Origin: a virus
Taxonomy: Duplodnaviria; Heunggongvirae; Uroviricota; Caudoviricetes
DNA length: 10,451 nt
Direction: 5' to 3' (one strand)
IMG/VR virus record: IMGVR_UViG_2563366843_000006
The position numbers were made by a program, and so were the translations under genes. The notes beneath the pieces are model-generated. The model made no database searches, was not told the origin of the DNA, and was given only the letters and a program-made list of their open reading frames with translations. Within the stretch, counting starts at the first letter, position 1. Every line of letters starts with the position of its first letter. Of this stretch, positions 1 through 10,451 are shown in pieces.

Positions 1-600
1 ATGCGTAAATTATGTGCTGTTATTCTGTCCGCAGTAGTCTGGCTGGTTGCCGCTGGTACGCCAGCAAGCGCAGCAGAGCATCAGTCCACACTAAGCGCCG
101 GGTATCTTCAGACCCATACTGATATGCCAGGCAGTGATGACCTGAAGGGCATTAACGTGAAATACCGTTATGAATTTACGGACACGCTGGGGCTGGTGAC
201 GTCATTCAGTTATGCCAATGCCAAAGATGAGCAAAAAACGCATTACAGCGATACCCGCTGGCATGAAGATTCAGTGCGTAACCGCTGGTTCAGCATGATG
301 GCGGGGCCATCTGTACGCGTGAATGAATGGTTCAGTGCTTATGCGATGGCAGGTGTGGCTTACAGCCGTGTTTCGACTTTTTCCGGGGATTATCTCCGCG
401 TAACTGACAGCAAGGGGAAAACGCACGATGTGCTGACCGGAAGTGATGACGGTCGCCACAGCAACACGTCTCTGGCGTGGGGGGCTGGCGTGCAGTTTAA
501 CCCGACCGAATCCGTGGCCATTGATATTGCTTATGAAGGCTCCGGCAGTGGTGACTGGCGCACTGACGGTTTCATCGTGGGTGTCGGTTATAAATTCTGA
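1..600 (+). CDS. lom: Outer membrane protein Lom (Ail/Lom/PagC-family beta-barrel), prophage moron
   Basis: 199-aa ORF with an N-terminal signal peptide (MRKLCAVILSAVVWLVAAGTPASA/AEH), amphipathic beta-strand pattern and C-terminal Phe (GVGYKF). Closely matches my recollection of phage lambda Lom. Lies immediately upstream of stf as in lambda and is followed by an intrinsic terminator. Confidence 0.9.
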   Translation: MRKLCAVILSAVVWLVAAGTPASAAEHQSTLSAGYLQTHTDMPGSDDLKGINVKYRYEFTDTLGLVTSFSYANAKDEQKTHYSDTRWHEDSVRNRWFSMMAGPSVRVNEWFSAYAMAGVAYSRVSTFSGDYLRVTDSKGKTHDVLTGSDDGRHSNTSLAWGAGVQFNPTESVAIDIAYEGSGSGDWRTDGFIVGVGYKF

Positions 601-627
601 TTAGCCAGGTAACACAGTGTTATGACA

Positions 628-653
628 GCCCGCCGGTTCAGGCGGGCTTTTTT
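628..653 (+). terminator. Rho-independent terminator downstream of lom
   Basis: Perfect 7-bp GC-rich stem GCCCGCC (628-634) / GGCGGGC (641-647) with loop GGTTCA, followed by TTTTTT (648-653). Confidence 0.65.
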
Positions 654-664
654 GTGGAGTGGAT

Positions 665-3040
665 ATGGCAGCAGTAAAAATCTCAGGTGTGCTGAAAGAT
701 GGTGCGGGAAAACCAATACAGAACTGCACTATTCAACTGAAGGCAAAGCGTAACAGCACCACGGTACTGGTGAACACGGTGGCCTCTGAAAATCCGGATG
801 AAGCCGGGCGTTACAGCATGGATGTTGAGTATGGCCAGTACAGCGTCATCCTGCTGGTTGAAGGTTTTCCGCCTTCACATGCCGGGACCATTACCGTCTA
901 TGAAGGCTCCAGACCAGGTACGCTGAATGATTTTCTCGGTGCCATGACGGAAGAGGATGTCATGCCGGAGGCATTGCGTCGTTTTGAGGCAATGGTGGAA
1001 GAAGTGGCACGCAACGCCGAAGCCGCCTCTCAGAGCGCAGCGGCGGCAAAGAAATCCGAAACTGCAGCGGCATCATCGAAGAACGCGGCGAAAACCTCAG
1101 AAACGAATGCAGCTAACAGCGCACAGGCGGCAGCGACCTCACAGACTGCATCGGCAAACTCCGCGACAGCAGCCAAAAAATCAGAAACCAATGCGAAAAA
1201 CAGCGAGACAGCCGCAAAGACGAGCGAAACCAACGCAAAGTCCAGCCAGACGGCAGCGAAAACCAGCGAAACGAATGCCAAAGCCAGTGAAACTGCGGCG
1301 AAAAACAGCCAGGATGCAGCGGCCCAAAGCGAGAGTGCCGCAGCTGGTTCTGCGACTTCAGCAGCTGGATCAGCAACTGCTGCGGCTAACAGCCAGAAAG
1401 CTGCGAAGACGAGTGAAACCAACGCAAAGTCCAGCCAGACGGCAGCGAAAACCAGCGAAACGAATGCCAAAGCCAGTGAAACTGCGGCGAAAAGCAGTCA
1501 GGATGCAGCAGCCGAAAGCGAGAGTGCTGCAGCTGGCTCTGCAAGCGCGGCGGCTGCTTCTGCCACTGCATCAGCCAACAGTCAAAAAGCTGCAAAAACC
1601 AGTGAAACCAACGCAAAGGCGAGCGAGACTGCGGCGGCTAACTCGGCGAAAGCATCCGCTGCAAGCCAGACGGCTGCAAAAGCAAGTGAAGACGCAGCCA
1701 GAGAGTATGCAAGCCAGGCTGCGGAGCCGTATAAACAAGTATTGCAGCCGCTTCCCGATGTGTGGATACCGTTTAACGATTCACTGGATATGATTACGGG
1801 CTTTTCGCCGTCATATAAAAAGATTGTTATTGGTGATGATGAAATAACGATGCCTGGCGATAAGGTTGTAAAGTTTAAACGCGCATCAAAAGCAACTTAC
1901 ATTAATAAATCTGGTGTGCTGACAGAGGCTGCCATTGACGAGCCACGGTTTGAACGTGATGGCCTGCTTATTGAGGGGCAAAGAACAAACTACATGCTCA
2001 ATTCGGAAAACCCTGCCAGTTGGGGGCGATCGTCAAATATGGATGTGCCCGAAACAGGGACGGATAGTTTTGGTTTTACCTATGGAAAGTTTGTCTGCAA
2101 CGATTCTCTGATTGGGCAAACCTCAGCCATTAATATGGCATCAATTGCTGCAACAAAGTCAGTTGATGTCTCAGGCGATAATAAACACGTGACAACCTCA
2201 TGTCGTTTTAAAACAGAACTGCAGGTAAGGTTGCGTATCCGGTTTGATAAATATGACGGTAGCGCAACAACTTTTCTTGGTGATGCGTATATTGATACAC
2301 AAACGCTTGAAATTAATATGACAGGCGGTGCTGCCTCAAGGATTACTGCGAGAGTCAGAAAGGACGAAGCTACCGGATGGATTTTTGCAGAGGCAACAAT
2401 TCAGGCAATTGATGGGGAGCTAAAAATAGGCTCTCAGATACAGTATTCTCCTAAGCAGAGCGGGGCAACCGTATCTGGTGACTATATTTATCTGGCCACC
2501 CCACAAGTAGAAGATGGGCCTTGTGTATCATCTTTTATTATATCAGGAGCGACGGCGGCGACCCGCGCAAGCGATATAGTTACAGTTCCAATTAAGAATA
2601 ATCTTTATAATCTTCCTTTTACGGTTCTTTGTGAGGTACATAAGAACTGGTATAAAACGCCAAATGCAGCGCCACGTGTTTTTGATACCGGCGGTCATCA
2701 AACCGGAGCGGCTATTATTCTTGGCTTCGGTCGTTCAACAGATTACGACGGATTTCCTTATTGCGATATTGGAGGAGCTAACAGACGGGTAAACGAAAAC
2801 GCATCGCTTGAAAAAATGGTTATGGGGATGCGTGTAAAGTCAGAGCAGTCTACGTGCTCAGTAAGTAACGGGCATATATCCAGCGAAACAAAAACCACAT
2901 GGTCCTGTATTCAGAACACCGCAATTATCCGTATTGGAGGCCAGACTACAGCCGGGTTACGTCATTTATTTGGTCATGTCAGGAATTTCAGAATATGGCA
3001 CAAGGCATTGACTGATGCTCAGGTGGGGGAGTCAATCTAA
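665..3040 (+). CDS. stf: Side tail fibre protein (lambda Stf-like N-terminal anchor, Ala/Ser/Thr-rich repetitive shaft, divergent C-terminal receptor-binding region)
   Basis: Long ORF (track 659-3040 from GTG). ATG at 665 is preferred because GGAG at 656-659 sits 5 nt upstream. N-terminus MAAVKISGVLKDGAGKPIQNCTIQLKAKRNSTTVLVNT... matches my recollection of lambda Stf. Central KTSETNAK-type repeats. The C-terminal ~430 aa is more AT-rich and ends ...LRHLFGHVRNFRIWHKALTDAQVGESI, reminiscent of a LamG/concanavalin-like lectin fold (tentative). Confidence 0.85.
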   Translation: MAAVKISGVLKDGAGKPIQNCTIQLKAKRNSTTVLVNTVASENPDEAGRYSMDVEYGQYSVILLVEGFPPSHAGTITVYEGSRPGTLNDFLGAMTEEDVMPEALRRFEAMVEEVARNAEAASQSAAAAKKSETAAASSKNAAKTSETNAANSAQAAATSQTASANSATAAKKSETNAKNSETAAKTSETNAKSSQTAAKTSETNAKASETAAKNSQDAAAQSESAAAGSATSAAGSATAAANSQKAAKTSETNAKSSQTAAKTSETNAKASETAAKSSQDAAAESESAAAGSASAAAASATASANSQKAAKTSETNAKASETAAANSAKASAASQTAAKASEDAAREYASQAAEPYKQVLQPLPDVWIPFNDSLDMITGFSPSYKKIVIGDDEITMPGDKVVKFKRASKATYINKSGVLTEAAIDEPRFERDGLLIEGQRTNYMLNSENPASWGRSSNMDVPETGTDSFGFTYGKFVCNDSLIGQTSAINMASIAATKSVDVSGDNKHVTTSCRFKTELQVRLRIRFDKYDGSATTFLGDAYIDTQTLEINMTGGAASRITARVRKDEATGWIFAEATIQAIDGELKIGSQIQYSPKQSGATVSGDYIYLATPQVEDGPCVSSFIISGATAATRASDIVTVPIKNNLYNLPFTVLCEVHKNWYKTPNAAPRVFDTGGHQTGAAIILGFGRSTDYDGFPYCDIGGANRRVNENASLEKMVMGMRVKSEQSTCSVSNGHISSETKTTWSCIQNTAIIRIGGQTTAGLRHLFGHVRNFRIWHKALTDAQVGESI
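1211..1623. repeat. In-frame tandem duplication inside stf, period 189 bp (63 aa), about 2.2 copies, embedded in a wider field of shorter KTSETNAK-coding repeats (about 1040-1690)
   Basis: Near-identical blocks: CAACGCAAAGTCCAGCCAGACGGCAGCGAAAACCAGCGAAACGAATGCCAAAGCCAGTGAAACTGCGGCGAAAA starts at 1231 and again at 1420; a third partial unit begins near 1610. Confidence 0.75.
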
Positions 3041-3321
3041 TGAAAGATTTAACACTCAAATTTGCCGACAGGGCCGACTTTTCGGCCTTTATGGATAGCA
3101 CTGGCTATTATGATGACGAGTCGATGCAGGATGATATTCTTATCGACGTGATAGGTAACGTGTACAAAGAAACCGGAGAACTGACTGAAGATGGCGAACC
3201 GGTATGTGTTAAGGAAGACGGATATTTTGTAAACGTGCGCATCATTAATGATTCGCAAATATCGTCATTATTCGATGAATACGTGGTTGCTGTTGAGCAT
3301 CAACTTCGTGGCTGGATGTGA
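3040..3321 (+). CDS. Hypothetical small acidic protein (93 aa), translationally coupled to stf; possibly tail-fibre associated
   Basis: ATG at 3040 overlaps the stf stop TAA (3038-3040) by 1 nt; GGGGGAG 8 nt upstream. Asp/Glu-rich, no TM segment. Function not recognisable by eye. Confidence 0.55.
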   Translation: MKDLTLKFADRADFSAFMDSTGYYDDESMQDDILIDVIGNVYKETGELTEDGEPVCVKEDGYFVNVRIINDSQISSLFDEYVVAVEHQLRGWM

Positions 3322-3330
3322 GGAAGAAAA

Positions 3331-4371
3331 ATGGCTACATCGACAGTAATTCCTGATGACATCAAAACGCTAAAATCCGACGTTAGCAAATTAAAAAACG
3401 ATCAAGGAAGCTACGCAACAAAATTATATGTAGACAGCAAAGATGAAATCGTTGGTGACTGGTCTGCTTCATGGTATCAGCAGGTATTGCCAACTAGCGG
3501 AGCTATATTTGGGAGAAAACTCCGCTCAACTCACAGGACGGCAGGTGTTGAGGATGCGTATTGCGAACTATACCTCAAAAAATGGATAGACAGTCCAGGT
3601 AACGCAATGGCGCGCCTTAACCTGAACGATAACGGGACAAACATTTGCTGGGACTTTACCAACCTTTATGGCGGTACGATGATTTTTCCCGGTGACAGCG
3701 GATACCTCAAAATGGGTAACTGCCTTATGTCATACAGCAAGCGTGGAAGTAGCGCGCTTATTAAATTTGATTACACCGACACATTACAGATCAAATATGC
3801 CAATCATGGGTCAACCATGACATTAAACACACAGGGAACCGCTTATGCTGGTGTTACTGCTCAATTGTGGGGCAACTCCAGCCGTCCTGTTGTTTATGAA
3901 GTCGGTGTTGATGGTGGCGCTTATATGTTCTATGCGCAGAAAAATACCGATAACACCTATATGTTAAGCGTTAATGGTGCATGTCATGCCACCGCATTTA
4001 ACCAGCATTCCGACCGGGATCTGAAAGACAACATTCAGGTGATCGATAATGCAACCGACCGCATCCGTAAAATGAACGGCTATACATACACGCTTAAAGA
4101 AAACGGTATGCCCTATGCTGGTGTCATTGCACAGGAAGCTCTGGAAGCAATCCCAGAAGTTGTAGGTTCCGCAATGAAATATCAGGACGGTGCGAGCGGA
4201 TCGGAAGGTGAAGAAGGTGAACGTTATTACACAGTAGATCATTCTGGTGTTACTGGCTTGCTTGTTCAGGTAGCCAGAGAGTCAGACGACAGGATAACAG
4301 CACTGGAAGAAGAAAACGCAGAATTAAGACAAAGATTATCTGCAATTGAGGCGGCGCTTGCGTCTAAATAA
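3331..4371 (+). CDS. Tail fibre/tailspike-like protein with C-terminal intramolecular chaperone auto-processing domain (peptidase S74-like)
   Basis: 346-aa ORF with AGGAAG SD 4 nt upstream. The C-terminal ~115 aa (SDRDLKDNIQVIDNATDRIRKMNGYTYTLKENGMPYAGVIAQEALEAIPEVV...YYTVDHSGVTGLLVQVARESDDRITALEEENAELRQRLSAIEAAL) matches the pattern of the chaperone domain of phage endosialidases and T5 L-shaped fibre pb1: Ser-Asp at the expected autocleavage point, a VIAQE...PE segment, and a terminal coiled coil. Confidence 0.8.
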   Translation: MATSTVIPDDIKTLKSDVSKLKNDQGSYATKLYVDSKDEIVGDWSASWYQQVLPTSGAIFGRKLRSTHRTAGVEDAYCELYLKKWIDSPGNAMARLNLNDNGTNICWDFTNLYGGTMIFPGDSGYLKMGNCLMSYSKRGSSALIKFDYTDTLQIKYANHGSTMTLNTQGTAYAGVTAQLWGNSSRPVVYEVGVDGGAYMFYAQKNTDNTYMLSVNGACHATAFNQHSDRDLKDNIQVIDNATDRIRKMNGYTYTLKENGMPYAGVIAQEALEAIPEVVGSAMKYQDGASGSEGEEGERYYTVDHSGVTGLLVQVARESDDRITALEEENAELRQRLSAIEAALASK

Positions 4372-4377
4372 TATTAA

Positions 4378-4400
4378 GGGGCCGAGTGCCCCGTTTTATT
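4378..4400 (+). terminator. Possible weak intrinsic terminator after the fibre-like gene
   Basis: GGGGC (4378-4382) / GCCCC (4388-4392) stem with 5-nt loop, then GTTTTATT. Short stem, so possibly only partial termination. Confidence 0.4.
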
Positions 4401-4413
4401 GGGTAGGATGAAA

Positions 4414-4701
4414 ATGGATATAACACCTTTCCTTCATGCGCTTTGTGCTGTGGCTGCGCAGCTACTGATTGGTCTTTTTACCGGAAACTGGGCTTACGGG
4501 GCGATAGCCGGTTGTACGTTCTTCATTGCTCGTGAACATACCCAGGCAGAATATCGCTGGATTGAAATGTTCGGGCATGGCAAGCGTATGAATATGCCGT
4601 GGTGGGGTGGTTTTGATCCACGCGTGTGGGATGTAGGAAGCCTTATGGATTTTTCTGTGCCGGTGGTGGCGTGTCTGCTGGTCTGGCTGTTTATCCGTTA
4701 A
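4414..4701 (+). CDS. Small predicted inner-membrane protein (about 96 aa), unknown function
   Basis: ORF in track (4399-4701 from TTG). ATG at 4414 preferred because AGGA at 4405-4408 sits 5 nt upstream. Hydrophobic segments FLHALCAVAAQLLIGLFTGNWAYGAIAGCTFFIA and SVPVVACLLVWLFI suggest 2-3 TM helices. Confidence 0.6.
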   Translation: MDITPFLHALCAVAAQLLIGLFTGNWAYGAIAGCTFFIAREHTQAEYRWIEMFGHGKRMNMPWWGGFDPRVWDVGSLMDFSVPVVACLLVWLFIR

Positions 4702-4850
4702 ACATAAAAAGCCGCAGCAACTTGTCATGGCAGAATACTGCGGCTGGCTGGTGAACTTCCGATAGTGCGAGTATTGAATGATTTCCAGCCATTACTGATT
4801 TTACGCATTTTTTGCATGAGAGGATTTGCACCTGCTCTCACAGACCATCT

Positions 4851-4927
4851 ATGACTGTACGCCACTATCTCTAGGGCTGCTATGTGCTGTGAGTTCAACC
4901 AATGTACGAACAGCCAGAAGCGGACAA
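4851..4927. repeat. Left copy of an imperfect inverted repeat bracketing the AT-rich cargo operon (core TATGTGCTGTGAGTTCAA at 4881-4898)
   Basis: Reverse complement of 8344-8410 aligns by hand with an 18/18 identical core plus flanks of about 21/29 and partial matches beyond, with one ~9-nt indel. Confidence 0.65.
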
Positions 4928-5037
4928 ATGATGACAAACTATATGCTCATCAACGTAGAGTAAGCCACTCAGTTGATGATGGGAGTGGGTTGCCTGCTGC
5001 CATCACTATTGTCGATTCTTAAGTGTACGCACTCTAA

Positions 5038-5068
5038 TTTACAGTTGCTTCATAGCGTAAAATATGAT
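5038..5068 (+). promoter_or_regulatory. Candidate sigma70-like promoter for the cargo operon (TTTACA ... TATGAT); weak, with non-optimal 19-nt spacer
   Basis: -35-like TTTACA at 5038-5043 and -10-like TATGAT at 5063-5068, about 90 nt upstream of the first ATG. Judged by eye only. Confidence 0.2.
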
Positions 5069-5157
5069 TTAAGATCAAAGACGTTTACATCTCGTACCTC
5101 ACAAGCAGCTTTTACTTGCTGAGGGCGGTAGCGTTTCTATTATTATCTCAAATCAAT

Positions 5158-6150
5158 ATGGATAATGTAATGAGTGAAACTAAACACATATCTGAAATGG
5201 CAGAAAGGGTGGCAAATAATTTATTCTCAATTTTTAAATGGAAAAGGAAGATTGCTTCCGATTTCAGTTGGGATTGTGTAAGCCCTGATGAACATGGAGG
5301 AAAAAAAGATCATCCGTCTGATTGCGTTTTTTATTACAGAGATCCCTATGATAATGAAGTTAAATATATTAATACTGATCTTAAGAGTTATGCGAAAGGC
5401 TCAATAACAAAAGAGCAAATTAATAAAGCAATCAGTTCTCTTTCCTATGCAACGAATTGCGCACCATATAATGATAATTGGAAAAGGTTATTTAAACCAG
5501 AAGGGAATTGGTCTGTAATAGGTATGCTGTTTGTTTATAATCATTGCGGTGAATATAATGGGGACTTTAATGAAATAGTTAAGGCGGTTGAAAATGATGT
5601 CAATCATTTGGATAATGAAAAAATGATATATATTTTCTCCCCAGATAGAATTAGAATATTAAATAGTATTGCTAATGATATCAATGTAATGATAGGGAAA
5701 GAAGAATTACCGTCTAAAAATCATTTTAGCTTCTTTCATCCCAATGAGATATTAACAAAAAATCATTTCAACCATGATTATTCTGAGCCAGCAACTATTA
5801 ATGTTCTTTCTTCACCTTGGATTATAATTAAGCATGCAGATTGTGAGAATGAAAAGGCAGGCTATTTAATATATTATACTAAAGATGGTTCAGAAGATGA
5901 CGAATTTGACTATTTTATTGATGCTCTAAGCTATTACCAAATAATCAATAATACAAGTAATGTCAGAATCAAATTAACAATAAAAAATGAATTTGCAGCA
6001 AGTAATCTTTTAAACTCAATTAGTAAATACTATCAGTCTCTCGGTCGTACCGAAAAAGAATCAATGCAAATCGCCAATACAATGGTAAAAGGTACTATTG
6101 ATTTGGTTACACCACAGTTTTCTGCTAATGAAATTGGAGTTTTACCATGA
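5158..6150 (+). CDS. Hypothetical protein A of AT-rich three-gene operon (about 331 aa); N-terminal region has a tentative PD-(D/E)xK nuclease-like motif arrangement
   Basis: Long ORF in a roughly 30% G+C region; track ORF 5116-6150 begins at TTG. First ATG is at 5158, alternative at 5170; neither has a strong SD. Stop TGA overlaps the start of gene B (ATGA at 6147-6150). Asn/Lys/Ile/Tyr-rich, no TM or signal peptide. Confidence 0.75.
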   Translation: MDNVMSETKHISEMAERVANNLFSIFKWKRKIASDFSWDCVSPDEHGGKKDHPSDCVFYYRDPYDNEVKYINTDLKSYAKGSITKEQINKAISSLSYATNCAPYNDNWKRLFKPEGNWSVIGMLFVYNHCGEYNGDFNEIVKAVENDVNHLDNEKMIYIFSPDRIRILNSIANDINVMIGKEELPSKNHFSFFHPNEILTKNHFNHDYSEPATINVLSSPWIIIKHADCENEKAGYLIYYTKDGSEDDEFDYFIDALSYYQIINNTSNVRIKLTIKNEFAASNLLNSISKYYQSLGRTEKESMQIANTMVKGTIDLVTPQFSANEIGVLP

Positions 6151-7253
6151 GTAATCCTGAGAAAAAATTTGGTCATAGTATTTACTACATGAACGATCAA
6201 AATATTAGGGATGGTTTACTAGCGCAGAAAGTTAAAGCATCACATTTGATAAAAATTTTAAAAGATCGCAACATTTTAGTATCACCTCTATCTTCAAAAG
6301 AAGAACTGATAAACATGTTAAAGTTTATCAGATTCGATTATTATGATTATGTTTATTTATCATCAATTCTTGCAAATCAAGATAAAAAAGAAAGTAAGTC
6401 AAGTATTGATATAGATAAGAAAGTCACTGCTAAGCAAATATTAAGTACGTTTGAGTCGATTAAAGGAGTGTTAGAAGCTCGTCAAATTACAGCCGAGGTT
6501 TCTAAACAAAACAGTAAAAAAATAACTATCAACTTTGAGTATGTTGAGTTTGATCATTCGAAACCACCTATGCGTCAAAAATCATTCCGTAAAGGGGTAG
6601 TTGAATGTGATATAACTGCTACAGGTGCGATGCTTAATTATCCAGCAAATAAAGTTGGGGCAATAATAAAAGACCATTTAATCACACAACTTTCCAAAAA
6701 GTTAGATACTGAATTGAAGCCAATCGAATTTGATTTTGAGAACTCCAGTGTTGCAACTAGAAATAATTTCTTCCTTAGTGTAATCAATAATGTTGAAAAG
6801 TATGAAGTATACGATGTTGTCACTGTGGCAGTTAAGAAGATAGAAGAGAAAAAAGGAAAGGAAAGCTCCTCGTCAGCGGATTCAGACAATGATTCGGTAG
6901 GGGAAGCATTTACTGGAGAAGTTAGAAACGCCATTCTACGCGGAAATCAGATTTTAACTTCAAAAGTATACAGTGGGTTAAATACAGGGAATTATTATAT
7001 TTATAAAATTACTTGGAAGATTAGAGAAATAATTCCGGGCTTGGGATCTGAACAATCTGATTGTTATACGGTTGAGATTGAGTTTAGTGATAAAGATAAG
7101 GCTAAAGGACTAAAGTATTGTGTTAAAACTGTTCAGCGATTCTCCTCAAAAAATAGACTGAATGTTACAACTGAAAATCCTTTAAAAAATGAGCAAGAAA
7201 AATTAGGAAAGCTCATTTATAAAACAGCCCTAGATGTCTATTCTAAAATATAA
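6147..7253 (+). CDS. Hypothetical protein B of AT-rich three-gene operon (368 aa); two regions separated by a Ser/Asp-rich acidic linker
   Basis: ATG at 6147 with GGAG SD at 6136-6139 (7-nt spacing), overlapping the gene A stop. No recognisable catalytic signature by eye; linker KKGKESSSSADSDNDSVGEAF at about 6850-6910. Confidence 0.8.
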   Translation: MSNPEKKFGHSIYYMNDQNIRDGLLAQKVKASHLIKILKDRNILVSPLSSKEELINMLKFIRFDYYDYVYLSSILANQDKKESKSSIDIDKKVTAKQILSTFESIKGVLEARQITAEVSKQNSKKITINFEYVEFDHSKPPMRQKSFRKGVVECDITATGAMLNYPANKVGAIIKDHLITQLSKKLDTELKPIEFDFENSSVATRNNFFLSVINNVEKYEVYDVVTVAVKKIEEKKGKESSSSADSDNDSVGEAFTGEVRNAILRGNQILTSKVYSGLNTGNYYIYKITWKIREIIPGLGSEQSDCYTVEIEFSDKDKAKGLKYCVKTVQRFSSKNRLNVTTENPLKNEQEKLGKLIYKTALDVYSKI

Positions 7254-7268
7254 ATGGGGGATGGCATT

Positions 7269-7946
7269 ATGGAAAAAAGAATCGTTTTTTATGATTTTGA
7301 AACTCCTTTTAATCAGGAGCAAATCAGCAAAAGATTGATTGAAAACCAATTTACAAAAGATGCGATCTCAGGTTTTAGTTTACAGAAAAATAATAGTACT
7401 GGGATTTACTTCCGACATATTAAAAAGATTATTAACATTGACGTTGTGTTAACACCTTTTGGTGAAGAATATGAAAATACCACAATCGCCTACGCTACCA
7501 ATGAGGTGAAAATAACTGATAAGTCTCTTCGTATAATTAACCCATCTAGAACACTTGCTCCCTTTCGAACAGATTTGGTGAAGTCTCTAGACTTTCAGTG
7601 CACTATAAGTAATAAGAATATAGAATTAAGTCCACTATTGTTATCTTTGAGAGAAAGGAATGTTAATATCAACTTGACTGATATTGAACTTACTACATAT
7701 GACCTCTTTAAGGATTCTCGAGTTAAAATGGTCATTTCTTCTAATAGTGATTTAATTGGCAAAGCAGAATCCTATTTAAATAATGTTAAGTCCAACATCA
7801 CAAAAATAGGTTTTTCTTTATTGTTTAATGGTGATTATTATTTTGTTGAAATTGGTTGTAAAGGTTCATTGAAAATATCAGGGGATTTAATAGAGGATAA
7901 TTTGGAATATTATATTATTAATGAAATTCTATCTTTAGATGCTTAA
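7269..7946 (+). CDS. Hypothetical protein C of AT-rich three-gene operon (225 aa from ATG 7269; 230 aa if ATG 7254 is used)
   Basis: ORF directly abutting the gene B stop (TAA 7251-7253). GGGGGA at 7256-7261 is 7 nt upstream of ATG 7269, favouring that start. AT-rich codon usage like A and B; followed by a terminator at 8027-8057. Confidence 0.75.
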   Translation: MEKRIVFYDFETPFNQEQISKRLIENQFTKDAISGFSLQKNNSTGIYFRHIKKIINIDVVLTPFGEEYENTTIAYATNEVKITDKSLRIINPSRTLAPFRTDLVKSLDFQCTISNKNIELSPLLLSLRERNVNINLTDIELTTYDLFKDSRVKMVISSNSDLIGKAESYLNNVKSNITKIGFSLLFNGDYYFVEIGCKGSLKISGDLIEDNLEYYIINEILSLDA

Positions 7947-8026
7947 CCGCCTTGCTGTTGTGGGGGAAGTTTGAAAGTTAATATTTATTAACAAACATAT
8001 TGTTTTTATACCGTTTTTTAAAAAAA

Positions 8027-8057
8027 AGAGTCGAGACTTAAAGCGGCTCTTTTTTTA
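8027..8057 (+). terminator. Intrinsic terminator closing the three-gene operon (possibly bidirectional)
   Basis: Stem AGAGTCG (8027-8033) / CGGCTCT (8044-8050) including one G-U pair, 10-nt loop, then TTTTTTT (8051-8057); A-tract immediately upstream. Confidence 0.5.
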
Positions 8058-8343
8058 TTAGTTGTTGGGTTGAATTGAATTTTAAAATAAGTTCCTGCAA
8101 TAAGAACGAACCAAGTAAACGATCTGGAAATTATTAATCTTTTCCTCCCGATGAAGATTCTTCTGAGTGCGGATCAAAGTAACTTAACGTTACTTTCCTC
8201 ACCAACACAAAGTAAAAAGGTATTTTTTAAATGTAAAATAGTCAAATCCGACGAAAAGTATAAATTAATATACTTGATTTGTTCCTGTTATTTCCTGGCC
8301 AACCTGCAACAATTGGAAGTGGCAACTAAAATTTGCTATGTAT

Positions 8344-8410
8344 ATGTTCGCTTGTCGCTGTGCGTCCATCGATTGAACTCACAGCACATAACAGACATTC
8401 ACTACAGTTA
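8344..8410. repeat. Right copy of the imperfect inverted repeat bracketing the cargo operon (core TTGAACTCACAGCACATA at 8373-8390, the reverse complement of 4881-4898)
   Basis: See left copy. The two copies face each other across about 3.4 kb containing only the three AT-rich genes and their terminator. Confidence 0.65.
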
Positions 8411-8762
8411 TGGTAGAAGGTATGCATGCTGGGTGGGGAAAGTATGAAGGAAAAGAAGACTGCTGCGCCGTTTGTCGTCACATTTATCTTCATTGGCTAT
8501 GCAAGTCGTAATACAAGGTGGGACAAAACAGAGACACATAAGGTCTCACAAAGGTCTGCAAGGCCTCACATGTATTGAGATGTTAATAAAATGTAGACTT
8601 GTAATTTGGATATAAATGGTAGAGAAAACCTTTCCCCAAAATAAAAACGAACGTCAATGAAATCAAACGGTTGAATAAAGTTGATTTTGGCTAATAAAAA
8701 AACAATAAAATAATTTTTATCATTAAATATCAATGACTTGAACTTAATGTTTTTATATACTG

Positions 8763-8924
8763 CTGCGCCATATGGGCTGGACTGAAGCCGCAGACTTGAT
8801 TGTTAAAGGTATGGAAGGCGCAATCAATGCGAAGACCGTAACCTATGATTTCGAACGTCTGATGGAAGGTGCTAAACTGCTGAAATGCAGCGAGTTTGGT
8901 GATGCGATCATCAAGAACATGTAA
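8763..8924 (+). pseudogene. icd: Orphan 3' fragment of isocitrate dehydrogenase gene (last ~54 codons, icdC-like), marking the prophage/host junction (attR side)
   Basis: In-frame translation [53 protein letters not shown] matches my recollection of the E. coli Icd C-terminus. No icd sequence upstream, where unrelated AT-rich DNA begins at about 8760. Followed by a strong terminator. Confidence 0.85.
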
Positions 8925-8947
8925 TTACTACATGTGTTAAATATTGT

Positions 8948-8979
8948 AACGGGCGTATAACACGCCCGTTGTTTTATTT
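8948..8979 (+). terminator. icd intrinsic terminator (could also serve convergent iraM)
   Basis: Perfect 9-bp stem AACGGGCGT (8948-8956) / ACGCCCGTT (8962-8970), loop ATAAC, then GTTTTATTT. Confidence 0.75.
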
Positions 8980-9026
8980 ATGTGGATATTATTAATATCA
9001 TGTCGAGAATATTTATATGAAGGCCA

Positions 9027-9350
9027 TTACTTGAGTCCATATGGGCATATTTTTATAATACAACTATTATGTAAACATTTATTTGTTATTTCGCTTTCTC
9101 CTGGAGGACACTCTTGACTGCTTTTGAGTAAACTCCATAAATTCTTGTTGAATGGTGCAATGTTATAAATAGTAATAGGATATTCTTTATCCTCAAGGAT
9201 AATACCAGGCTTAACCGGTGTAAATATACTTCCAGGAGGAAGAAATATAGTAGATTGATACCAGATGATCATTTTCATATCACCCCATATGGCTGAAAAA
9301 GATATGCCGCATGTAGGTTGAATTACCGTGTCAATTACTACCCACTTCAT
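9027..9350 (-). CDS. iraM: Anti-adaptor protein IraM (RssB inhibitor stabilising RpoS)
   Basis: 107-aa [46 protein letters not shown]...CPYGLK closely matches my recollection of E. coli IraM (YcgW). Located next to the icd remnant as in E. coli K-12; long AT-rich upstream region. Confidence 0.8.
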
Positions 9351-9788
9351 TTGTTATGTCTTATCCCACGGTATTTAATATAGTTCATTTGGATGTTCAT
9401 TTCTTTATTTTGCATATGAGTATATTACCCTTCAAAAAAATAAATTAATTAAAACGATTGCTTATATAAAACAAAATTTAAAGCAAGTAATCTCAATAGA
9501 GATTAAACAAAATGAGATTTAGTGAAAACATTAAATCATTCACTTCGTTTTAGATTTGTTTAGTTAAAATGTTATACATTCAAATGACTGAACATCCTGT
9601 AATTAAAACATAGCCTTTATGCTACTTTGCGCTAATTTGCTAAACATTATGATTGGCCTTTTTATATAACGATAATGATGAATATAAGCATGACATGAGA
9701 ATAAGGTTTCAATTTTTGAGTTATATAGGAATGATTTAACCTGTTCCTGGCTAAAATACATATAACCGGATGATGACTAAACCAAAAC

Positions 9789-9840
9789 ACATGTGCGTTA
9801 AGTATTGAAACGGACGTATGGCACGCCCGTTGTTTTTATA
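9789..9840 (+). repeat. Degenerate second copy of the icd 3'-flank/terminator segment (direct repeat of 8930-8980)
   Basis: ACATGTG(C)GTTAAGTATTGAAACGGACGTATGGCACGCCCGTTGTTTTT aligns with ACATGTGTTAAATATTGTAACGGGCGTATAACACGCCCGTTGTTTTA at roughly 85% identity; the hairpin carries one stem mismatch (A9814). Confidence 0.6.
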
Positions 9841-10046
9841 AATATGTTAACCGTTATAAAATAACGTATAGAAAGTCAAGTAATCACATTTCAAATATCA
9901 ATTTGATAGTATTGATCTGGTGATTATTTATGGGTGGCAATAAAAAGATAGTATTACTCATCCATATGAATAGTCTCTGCACTTTTATTTCCATTATGCT
10001 AATGCCTTACTGAATTATGAAGTATTTTTTAAGCATCCAACTTTAG

Positions 10047-10451
10047 CTAGATTAATGGTTTATTATTTTCTACATCTTCAATATATAAAAGCGTATTATC
10101 AATGGCGTAGTAACTGCGTTTGTTATGATTAACATCAGTAACCCACCGGAAAACGCCCGCGTCTGCCAGTGTTGAACAGTATTCCCGAAATGTTGATTTT
10201 CCGCAAATATGAAGCAATGCGGCCTCTTTTATTTTAGCAGGGTTCTTGGTCGTACTAACTTTTAACAGGTTCCTGGTTCCTCTTAATAACAAAACCGTGT
10301 CATCGTGAGTAATAATTCTGATGTTATCCGTAGCCAGATAATAAATGTAATGTGCAATACGGTGATGTTTTAATTCTGAATAAAACCAGGAGAAGTTTTG
10401 CTCTTTTCTCACTTGCTCAAACATCTTTTGAAAAACAACAACCTGATCCAT
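10047..10451 (-). CDS. ycgX: Hypothetical protein, likely YcgX-like (DUF1398 family); start codon lies at the window edge
   Basis: 134-aa ORF with ATG at 10449-10451 (minus strand) and stop at 10047-10049. Assignment rests on synteny downstream of iraM in E. coli K-12 and on protein size; the sequence itself was not recognised with certainty. Confidence 0.5.
   Translation of the reverse strand: MDQVVVFQKMFEQVRKEQNFSWFYSELKHHRIAHYIYYLATDNIRIITHDDTVLLLRGTRNLLKVSTTKNPAKIKEAALLHICGKSTFREYCSTLADAGVFRWVTDVNHNKRSYYAIDNTLLYIEDVENNKPLI

Follow-up and report, generated by a model that had tools for sequence, protein, structure and literature searches.

Here we describe a three-gene cassette in a 10,451-nucleotide stretch of viral DNA (IMG/VR record IMGVR_UViG_2563366843_000006), which as a whole is referred to as the window. 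The genes hp1, hp2 and hp3 correspond to open reading frames (ORFs) A, B and C and are located in a lambdoid prophage, at its attR end. Homology of all three products identifies the cassette as a divergent member of the 3HP family of anti-phage defence systems. We regard it as fairly probable that this 3HP-family moron works in the manner of the GAPS4 defence system, that is, as an abortive DNase that is triggered by DNA breaks, with a third subunit in addition. The three genes are as follows.

5170 to 6150, + strand: hp1 (ORF A), 326 amino acids, predicted PD-(D/E)xK nuclease, GAPS4a-like.
6147 to 7253, + strand: hp2 (ORF B), 368 amino acids, predicted SAP-like N-terminus and RdgC-like body, probable GAPS4b counterpart.
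7269 to 7946, + strand: hp3 (ORF C), 225 amino acids, conserved third subunit of the 3HP-type cassette.

Profile searches revealed that the PADLOC models Hp1, Hp2 and Hp3 match the products of ORFs A, B and C (E = 6.7e-61, 1.2e-27 and 4.1e-13, respectively). The match of Hp1 to PDLC03004 covers residues 5-293 of the protein and positions 2-297 of the 333 in the profile, the match of Hp2 to PDLC03005 is near full length, and Hp3 matches phrog_5850 (E = 1.3e-24) in addition to PDLC03006. All three proteins belong to PHROG families of no assigned function. The founding system, described as "hp + hp + hp", was cloned from the P2 hotspot of E. coli E1114 on plasmid pFR109, and it protects E. coli against P1, out of eight phages (Rousset et al. 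2022, PMC9122126). BLASTP comparison with the proteins of this validated 3HP showed 38% identity over 274 amino acids for Hp1 (E = 6e-64), 26% over 363 amino acids for Hp2 (E = 2e-31) and 29% over 164 amino acids for Hp3 (E = 2e-13). DefenseFinder calls this system Rst_3HP, while Hp1, Hp2 and Hp3 are the PADLOC names. The original prediction, made from the DNA letters without database searches, had proposed an anti-phage defence system that may be undescribed. Homology to the validated 3HP supports the first half of this proposal; resistance was demonstrated for the E1114 homologue, and by homology the present copy is expected to have the same function. The second half did not survive, since the profile search assigned the cassette, at family level, to an already characterised system, an outcome which the prediction itself had named as counting against it. 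The cassette is not a new system because PADLOC or DefenseFinder would call it. What is new is the divergent copy and its carrier, a lambdoid prophage at icd.

The genes are adjacent and co-directional in the order Hp1-Hp2-Hp3, and the same arrangement was observed in all of the related loci inspected, at least ten in number. This order is maintained down to 31% identity, once in a defence-island setting. A Vibrio prophage carries a homologue with 52% identity next to its integrase, where the depositor labelled the genes Rst_3HP__Hp1/2/3. Homologues also occupy the P2 hotspot of Klebsiella Peduoviridae and, in another Klebsiella P2-like prophage, a position between gpU and the tail-fibre genes. 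In Pseudomonas phage 54-4 (OR621021.1, 485-3252), a Pf-like filamentous phage of 13 kb (Tubulavirales; inovirus), the cassette occupies the left end, and the depositor labelled Hp1 'nuclease related protein' and Hp3 'RdgC-like exonuclease'. A distant cassette, with an Hp1 of 31% identity, was found on the metagenomic contig SRR31327227_158 (5563-8718), where its neighbours are BubE, ThiF, Multi_ubiq and an AAA_15/AAA_21 ATPase, a typical defence island.

Hp1 was compared with its homologues and with GAPS4a. In the Hp1 alignment (49 homologues), H48, P49, D51, D70, L71, K72 and S73 are invariant, and H48-P49-D51...D70-K72 reads as the canonical PD-(D/E)xK signature (HPxD...DxK). The AlphaFold2 model of Hp1 is confident (predicted local distance difference test, pLDDT, 86.6; predicted template modelling score, pTM, 0.88) and contains the restriction-endonuclease-like alpha-beta-beta-beta-alpha-beta core, and the effectors of Shedu and Hachiman are among its structural neighbours. 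It had been stated that the proteins carry no Walker A motif and no other signature that could be called confidently. The former is correct, and scans of Hp1, Hp2 and Hp3 against NCBIfam and a copy of Pfam that did not include PF26115 and PF26110 gave no match either; the latter is contradicted by the invariant motif of Hp1. The precomputed Pfam annotation assigns PF26115 (PDDEXK_GAPS4) to the 93%-identical cluster representative of Hp1, and of the Hp1 homologues listed only one lacks it.

GAPS4 is a two-gene defence system of Vibrio GMT islands (Mahata et al., 10.1101/2023.03.28.534373). Its first protein, GAPS4a, is a PD-(D/E)xK enzyme with an HGxD-SxK motif. It assembles with GAPS4b into an a2b2 complex, and a ring is predicted for the two b subunits; the system senses DNA breaks and then degrades host and phage DNA non-selectively (10.1101/2025.09.07.674715). 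GAPS4a and GAPS4b sequences were transcribed from the supplementary files of the same paper (10.1101/2025.09.07.674715), and the transcription was checked by the identity between the GAPS4b proteins of RiKo and MAVP-R, which came to 25.5% as in the paper. When Hp1 was aligned by hhalign with seven GAPS4a sequences, residues 1-225 matched 1-224 over 208 columns with a probability of 96.8% (E = 2.3e-10), and D51 of Hp1 landed on the aspartate of HG-x-D in GAPS4a. By motif position, D51 corresponds to D49 of GAPS4a-RiKo, the alanine mutant of which serves as an inactive control (10.1101/2025.09.07.674715). Profile comparison identifies Hp1 as a homologue of GAPS4a, and its alignment and modelled fold describe a conserved, predicted PD-(D/E)xK nuclease with intact catalytic residues.

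The model of Hp2 is of moderate confidence (pLDDT 78.5, pTM 0.67), with a disordered acidic insert or loop at about residues 235-260. Its best structural match is the ring-forming protein RdgC, and the modelled fold is RdgC-like; the next matches are the RdgC/TBP-like kinetochore proteins Chl4, CENP-N, CENP-L and Iml3, followed by KA1 domains. When viral models were searched independently with Foldseek, phage RdgC proteins again headed the list for Hp2 (E = 1.3e-5). At the level of sequence, Hp2 had no Pfam match to RdgC, and hhalign against an RdgC alignment was not significant (E = 0.46). The model describes Hp2 as a SAP-like N-terminal domain on a putative RdgC-like DNA-binding body. We also compared an extended Hp2 profile with GAPS4b, for which two sequences were used. 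hhalign gave 198 collinear columns (20-222 against 14-241) with E = 0.0085 and a probability of 4.7%, and the score of 27.7 was above those of all 60 column-shuffled controls (15.1 +/- 2.8, maximum 24.4). Common to both proteins are a helix-hairpin at the N-terminus, "L..LLk.RG(I/L)", and the motif "DF.NE.R..(F/Y)L", and Pfam GAPS4b_N matches three of 28 Hp2 homologues, weakly. A search for GAPS4b homologues that could deepen the profile returned just two close copies from plasmids and none from phages. These data suggest that Hp2 is probably a homologue of GAPS4b, which falls short of proof. Phage P1 encodes an RdgC homologue of its own (MH445381.1 29046-29936), 61% identical to E. coli RdgC. 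That Hp2 is RdgC-like as well may be a coincidence, or it may be a clue to the trigger or to counter-defence; since the validated 3HP blocks P1 and P1 has this homologue, an interplay with phage RdgC is conceivable.

Hp3 is present in every cassette inspected. Its family comprises 234 clusters at 50% identity, and the best 150 of the 234 are stand-alone proteins of 200-238 amino acids with no fusion. No significant similarity of Hp3 to RdgC, GAPS4a, GAPS4b, Hp1 or Hp2 was detected, including with a profile of 151 sequences, and no enzymatic motif was recognisable. The label of Hp3 in phage 54-4 as an RdgC-like exonuclease was examined by hhalign with shallow and deep profiles and was not reproduced at the level of sequence; the outcome was a non-significant N-terminal alignment (E about 0.04, probability 1.2%). 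In addition, no relative of solved structure turned up for any of the three subunits when PDB sequences were searched with profiles. In terms of sequence, Hp3 is an additional, conserved subunit for which no relatives could be detected.

We take a GAPS4-like abortive DNase as the best model because GAPS4 itself combines a ring with a nuclease and degrades DNA on sensing breaks. In this model, Hp1 would be the effector, a PD-(D/E)xK DNase. Hp2 would bind DNA as a ring or horseshoe and, as the counterpart of GAPS4b, would dock and control Hp1. The trigger would be DNA ends or breaks, or aberrant replication or recombination DNA that arises from infection, as in GAPS4. Once active, the complex would break down DNA, probably that of host and phage alike, and the infection would be abortive. 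Hp3 would be an obligatory third subunit, whose most likely task is to adjust the sensing step or to hold the nuclease inactive as long as there is no infection. The formation of an Hp1-Hp2-Hp3 complex and what Hp3 does in it are inferred, as are the trigger and the abortive outcome, both of the latter by analogy with GAPS4.

The main rival is a targeted, non-abortive nuclease similar to a restriction enzyme. Hp2 and Hp3 would recognise something specific to phage DNA (free ends, for example, intermediates of replication or recombination, or a complex of a phage protein with DNA), and Hp1 would cut the invader only, so that the host survives. This explanation draws on the same family and nuclease evidence as the GAPS4-like model. 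Shedu and Hachiman, which belong to the structural neighbours of Hp1, have DNA ends or aberrant DNA as their targets. The range of the validated 3HP is narrow (P1 of eight phages), which is easier to reconcile with specific recognition than with a general alarm for DNA damage and leaves room for a specific trigger. However, GAPS4, the nearest characterised relative, degrades host as well as phage DNA, and the cassette has no self/non-self marking such as a methylase. We consider targeted cleavage unlikely on balance.

Several points also weigh against the GAPS4-like model. The motif of Hp1 is HPxD-DxK while that of GAPS4a is HGxD-SxK, and the C-terminal third of Hp1, about 100 residues, cannot be aligned with GAPS4a. 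Confidence in the Hp2 model is only moderate, its likeness to RdgC is structural and is not accompanied by a significant hhalign score, and its homology to GAPS4b is weak, with the low probability and E value given above and just two GAPS4b sequences behind it. Hp3 remains unexplained, and the GAPS4 papers make no mention of 3HP. Identity to the validated 3HP is only 26-38%, so that activity and phage range may differ. Furthermore, a consensus scan called no sigma-70 promoter upstream of hp1; by eye, the hexamers in 5000-5170 were all poorly spaced.

A more specific form of the GAPS4-like model can be put forward tentatively, and we hold it to be possible rather than probable. 3HP would be a three-subunit version of GAPS4, a 'DNA-integrity sentinel', in which a clamp of RdgC-like Hp2, perhaps completed or gated by Hp3, loads on DNA ends or on recombination or replication intermediates and licenses a GAPS4a-type DNase. 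Hp3 would narrow the trigger or suppress autoimmunity. Our literature searches found no published mechanism of 3HP and no link between RdgC and defence; the connection of 3HP with GAPS4 and the RdgC-like fold of Hp2 are likewise absent from the literature searched.

RdgC homologues of lytic phages are thought to serve phage DNA metabolism. The cassette could in principle be an accessory for the benefit of the phage, in which an RdgC-like protein and a nuclease take part in recombination or replication of the prophage's own DNA. RdgC-like proteins are common in phages (432 phage records) and the fold of Hp2 matches them, and the depositor's label of Hp3 in the Pf-like phage points in the same direction. 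Nevertheless, the cassette occupies variable slots rather than replication modules in unrelated elements (lambdoid, P2-like, a Vibrio prophage, an inovirus and a defence island), only 4 of 5426 genomes carry it though the prophage backbone is common, and a homologous system blocks P1. We regard this explanation as very improbable.

The gene boundaries are consistent with an operon. All three ORFs run in the same direction on the + strand, as had been noticed from the letters. ORF A, which ends with its stop at 6150, has possible starts at 5116, 5158 and 5170. The true start of hp1 is most likely the ATG at 5170, because this is the RefSeq start, it agrees with homologue lengths of 326-333 amino acids, and Met1, Glu3 and Thr4 are near-invariant across the homologue alignment. 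The lengths first proposed for B (368 amino acids) and C (225 amino acids) stand, and the boundaries of C match the RefSeq annotation, while the start at 5158 (331 amino acids) for A is replaced by 5170 (326 amino acids). The stop of hp1 and the start of hp2 overlap in ATGA at 6147-6150, with GGAG at 6136-6139 ahead of the hp2 start. hp2 ends with TAA at 7251-7253, followed by GGGGGA at 7256-7261, and the ATG of hp3 at 7269 lies seven bases beyond GGGGGA. These signals are all where the original prediction had put them. Of the coupling it proposed at both boundaries, the overlap of A with B is real; B and C are 15 nucleotides apart, which is close without overlap. Two further features complete the unit.

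5022 to 5169, + strand: upstream region that moves with the cassette, presumed native promoter and 5' untranslated region, delimited by homology with a Klebsiella copy.
8020 to 8057, + strand: hairpin resembling an intrinsic terminator, with flanking A and T runs, found by folding and kept in the Klebsiella copy.

The closing hairpin with its T tract was also part of the early description, and folding upholds it: the hairpin at about 8020-8057 has a free energy of -15.1 kcal/mol (z = -2.0), which was equalled in only 4 of 200 shuffles. The Klebsiella copy keeps the stem and the T-run, and the surrounding spacer has diverged. An automatic terminator scan missed this hairpin, apparently because the predicted loop is about 10 nucleotides and the scan admits loops of 3-8 nucleotides. 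Homology with the copy in a Klebsiella P2-like prophage begins at about 5022-5024, 146 nucleotides ahead of the hp1 start, at about 90% identity, and 5022-5169 is presumed to be the native promoter and 5' untranslated region on this basis. The shared DNA extends over 5024-7938 with 86% identity. This comparison delimits a putative mobile unit of about 5022-8057, which brings along an upstream region and a terminator in addition to the three genes.

Such a compact, translationally coupled operon with the nuclease first is also what a module of the toxin-antitoxin or addiction type might look like. A toxic Hp1 would be restrained by Hp3, Hp2 or both, and the module would stabilise the prophage end or exclude competitors, with defence being secondary. 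Hp3 is a small conserved partner that has no recognisable enzymatic motif, and GAPS4 shows autoimmunity when over-expressed, both of which fit this idea. On the other hand, the validated homologue defended from its native promoter, the gene order and sizes (326/368/225 amino acids) are unlike those of typical type II toxin-antitoxin pairs, and the fold of Hp2 indicates DNA binding and not a small antitoxin. We consider an addiction module improbable, and both it and the phage-recombination explanation are less likely than a targeted non-abortive nuclease.

Placed beyond the tail-fibre genes, the cassette is the last content ahead of attR at the attachment site in icd. Upstream of it are, in order, lom, a long stf, a small ORF, a gene for a tail-fibre protein (phrog_4563) and one for a small protein of no assigned function (phrog_1443). 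The following features define the prophage end and the inserted segment.

8772 to 8924, + strand: duplicated 3' fragment of icd, which marks attR; its translation is the C-terminus of isocitrate dehydrogenase.
4887 to 8384, no strand: 3.5-kb segment confined to cassette-carrying prophages, from flank searches and breakpoint mapping, with a G+C content of 32.2%.
4877 to 4929, no strand: left arm of an imperfect 53-nucleotide inverted repeat, pairing with 8342-8394 at 83% complementarity.
8342 to 8394, no strand: right arm of the same inverted repeat, partner of 4877-4929.

The annotation of NZ_CP066806 has a partial isocitrate dehydrogenase at the counterpart of 8772-8924, and after it come iraM and ycgX, which are genes of the chromosome. 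The duplication of the icd 3' end followed by iraM and ycgX therefore indicates a lambdoid prophage integrated in icd. Among 5426 complete E. coli genomes, the cassette DNA (4900-8150) is present in four, always at the same site, where the annotation lists three hypothetical proteins. Its flanks are common: the right one, starting at 8384, is found in 2338 E. coli genomes, and thousands have the left one as far as about 4805-4887. The icd prophages of strains H105 and PMV-1 have in the same slot sitABCD and a gene for a hypothetical protein of 256 amino acids. The sitABCD iron/manganese transporter operon lies there between the phrog_1443 gene and the prophage end, a site where the window has only 48 bp (4691-4739). 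Breakpoint mapping showed that the window is without sitABCD and that 4887-8384 replaces about 1.2 kb containing the hypothetical gene in relatives of the H105/PMV-1 type. With the sitABCD site separate from the cassette segment, the slot therefore consists of two or more sub-slots that vary independently. The region is a cargo slot with alternative contents. The comparison of presence and absence at one site, which had been suggested as a check, thus agrees with the idea of horizontally acquired AT-rich cargo between the side-tail-fibre genes and attR. The arms of the 53-nucleotide inverted repeat fall exactly on both junctions of the 3.5-kb segment; the repeat has no counterpart in sitABCD-type relatives that lack the cassette, and no recombinase site was identified for it.

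The low G+C content of the cassette had been noted, and hp1-hp3 indeed have 31.1%, as opposed to 48.5% for 1-4701 (from lom to the tail-fibre part). The return to higher values that was placed after about 8100 does not occur. G+C remains at 33-35% across 8385-10451 because the prophage end and the adjoining iraM-ycgX chromosome are also AT-rich. A 98-amino-acid ORF at 8151-8447, in the AT-rich spacer that separates the cassette terminator from the conserved prophage end, has no PHROG match and overlaps the right arm of the inverted repeat; it is probably not a gene. In stf (659-3040), overlapping internal direct repeats of about 249 bp (1199-1447 and 1388-1636, 86%) encode the Ala/Ser/Thr/Lys-rich 'SETNAK...AAKTSETNA' region. 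The tail-fibre module at about 1990-4405 is unlike that of strain TCM3e1, whose prophage end is otherwise shared. A 48-nucleotide direct repeat (85%) at 8930-8975 and 9789-9836 lies in the chromosomal iraM-ycgX intergenic regions; its first copy overlaps a short palindrome (8938-8980) that resembles a REP- or terminator-type element.

For annotation, these results mean that the cassette merits the label 3HP (Rst_3HP) instead of the three hypothetical proteins of RefSeq. In lambdoid prophages integrated in icd, the slot beside attR can be said to swap virulence (sitABCD) and immunity cargo. The analysis also provides testable assignments for 3HP: Hp1 as a GAPS4a-type nuclease, Hp2 as a SAP and RdgC-like protein that is likely the GAPS4b counterpart, and Hp3 as an extra subunit. 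If they are true, 3HP and GAPS4 would form one superfamily of ring-plus-nuclease sensors of DNA damage. If the more specific form with an Hp2 clamp is true, it would be the first mechanism for 3HP and would unite two separately described defence families, with a bacterial protein of the RdgC fold serving as an immune sensor and Hp3 as a previously unrecognised regulatory subunit.

The cassette can be compared with several known systems. The effectors of Shedu and Hachiman, SduA and HamA, are PD-(D/E)xK proteins related to Hp1 only at the level of the fold superfamily, and their partners differ, since Shedu is a single protein and Hachiman uses the HamB helicase; the domain organisation is also unlike that of 3HP. 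RdgC (PDB 2owl) is a recombination-associated, ring-shaped DNA-binding dimer. Ring formation by Hp2 is predicted only, and Hp2 has in addition the SAP-like N-terminal domain and the disordered acidic insert at 235-260. As regards GAPS4, homology between Hp1 and GAPS4a extends over about 210 residues and takes in the catalytic core HxxD...xK, and Hp2 resembles GAPS4b in length, SAP-like N-terminus, common motifs and ring-type architecture. In both systems the nuclease gene comes first and its partner second, and the sizes are similar (326+368 amino acids for Hp1 and Hp2, 308+385 for GAPS4a and GAPS4b). GAPS4, however, consists of two genes or one fused gene, while 3HP always has the third gene hp3. 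We did not class the cassette as GAPS4 because hp3 is always present and the two-component makeup of GAPS4 is not found. The DNA-break trigger and the abortive outcome are results for GAPS4 only. The closest characterised match is 3HP of E1114, which has the same gene order and similar sizes (333/359/227 amino acids, compared with 326/368/225 here). All three proteins are homologous and fall in common PADLOC and PHROG families, and both cassettes are variable cargo of temperate phages, that of E1114 at the P2 hotspot and the present one at the attR end of a lambdoid icd prophage. Within the family, the present subfamily is nearer to the copies of Klebsiella, Kosakonia, Yersinia and Vibrio than to 3HP of E1114.

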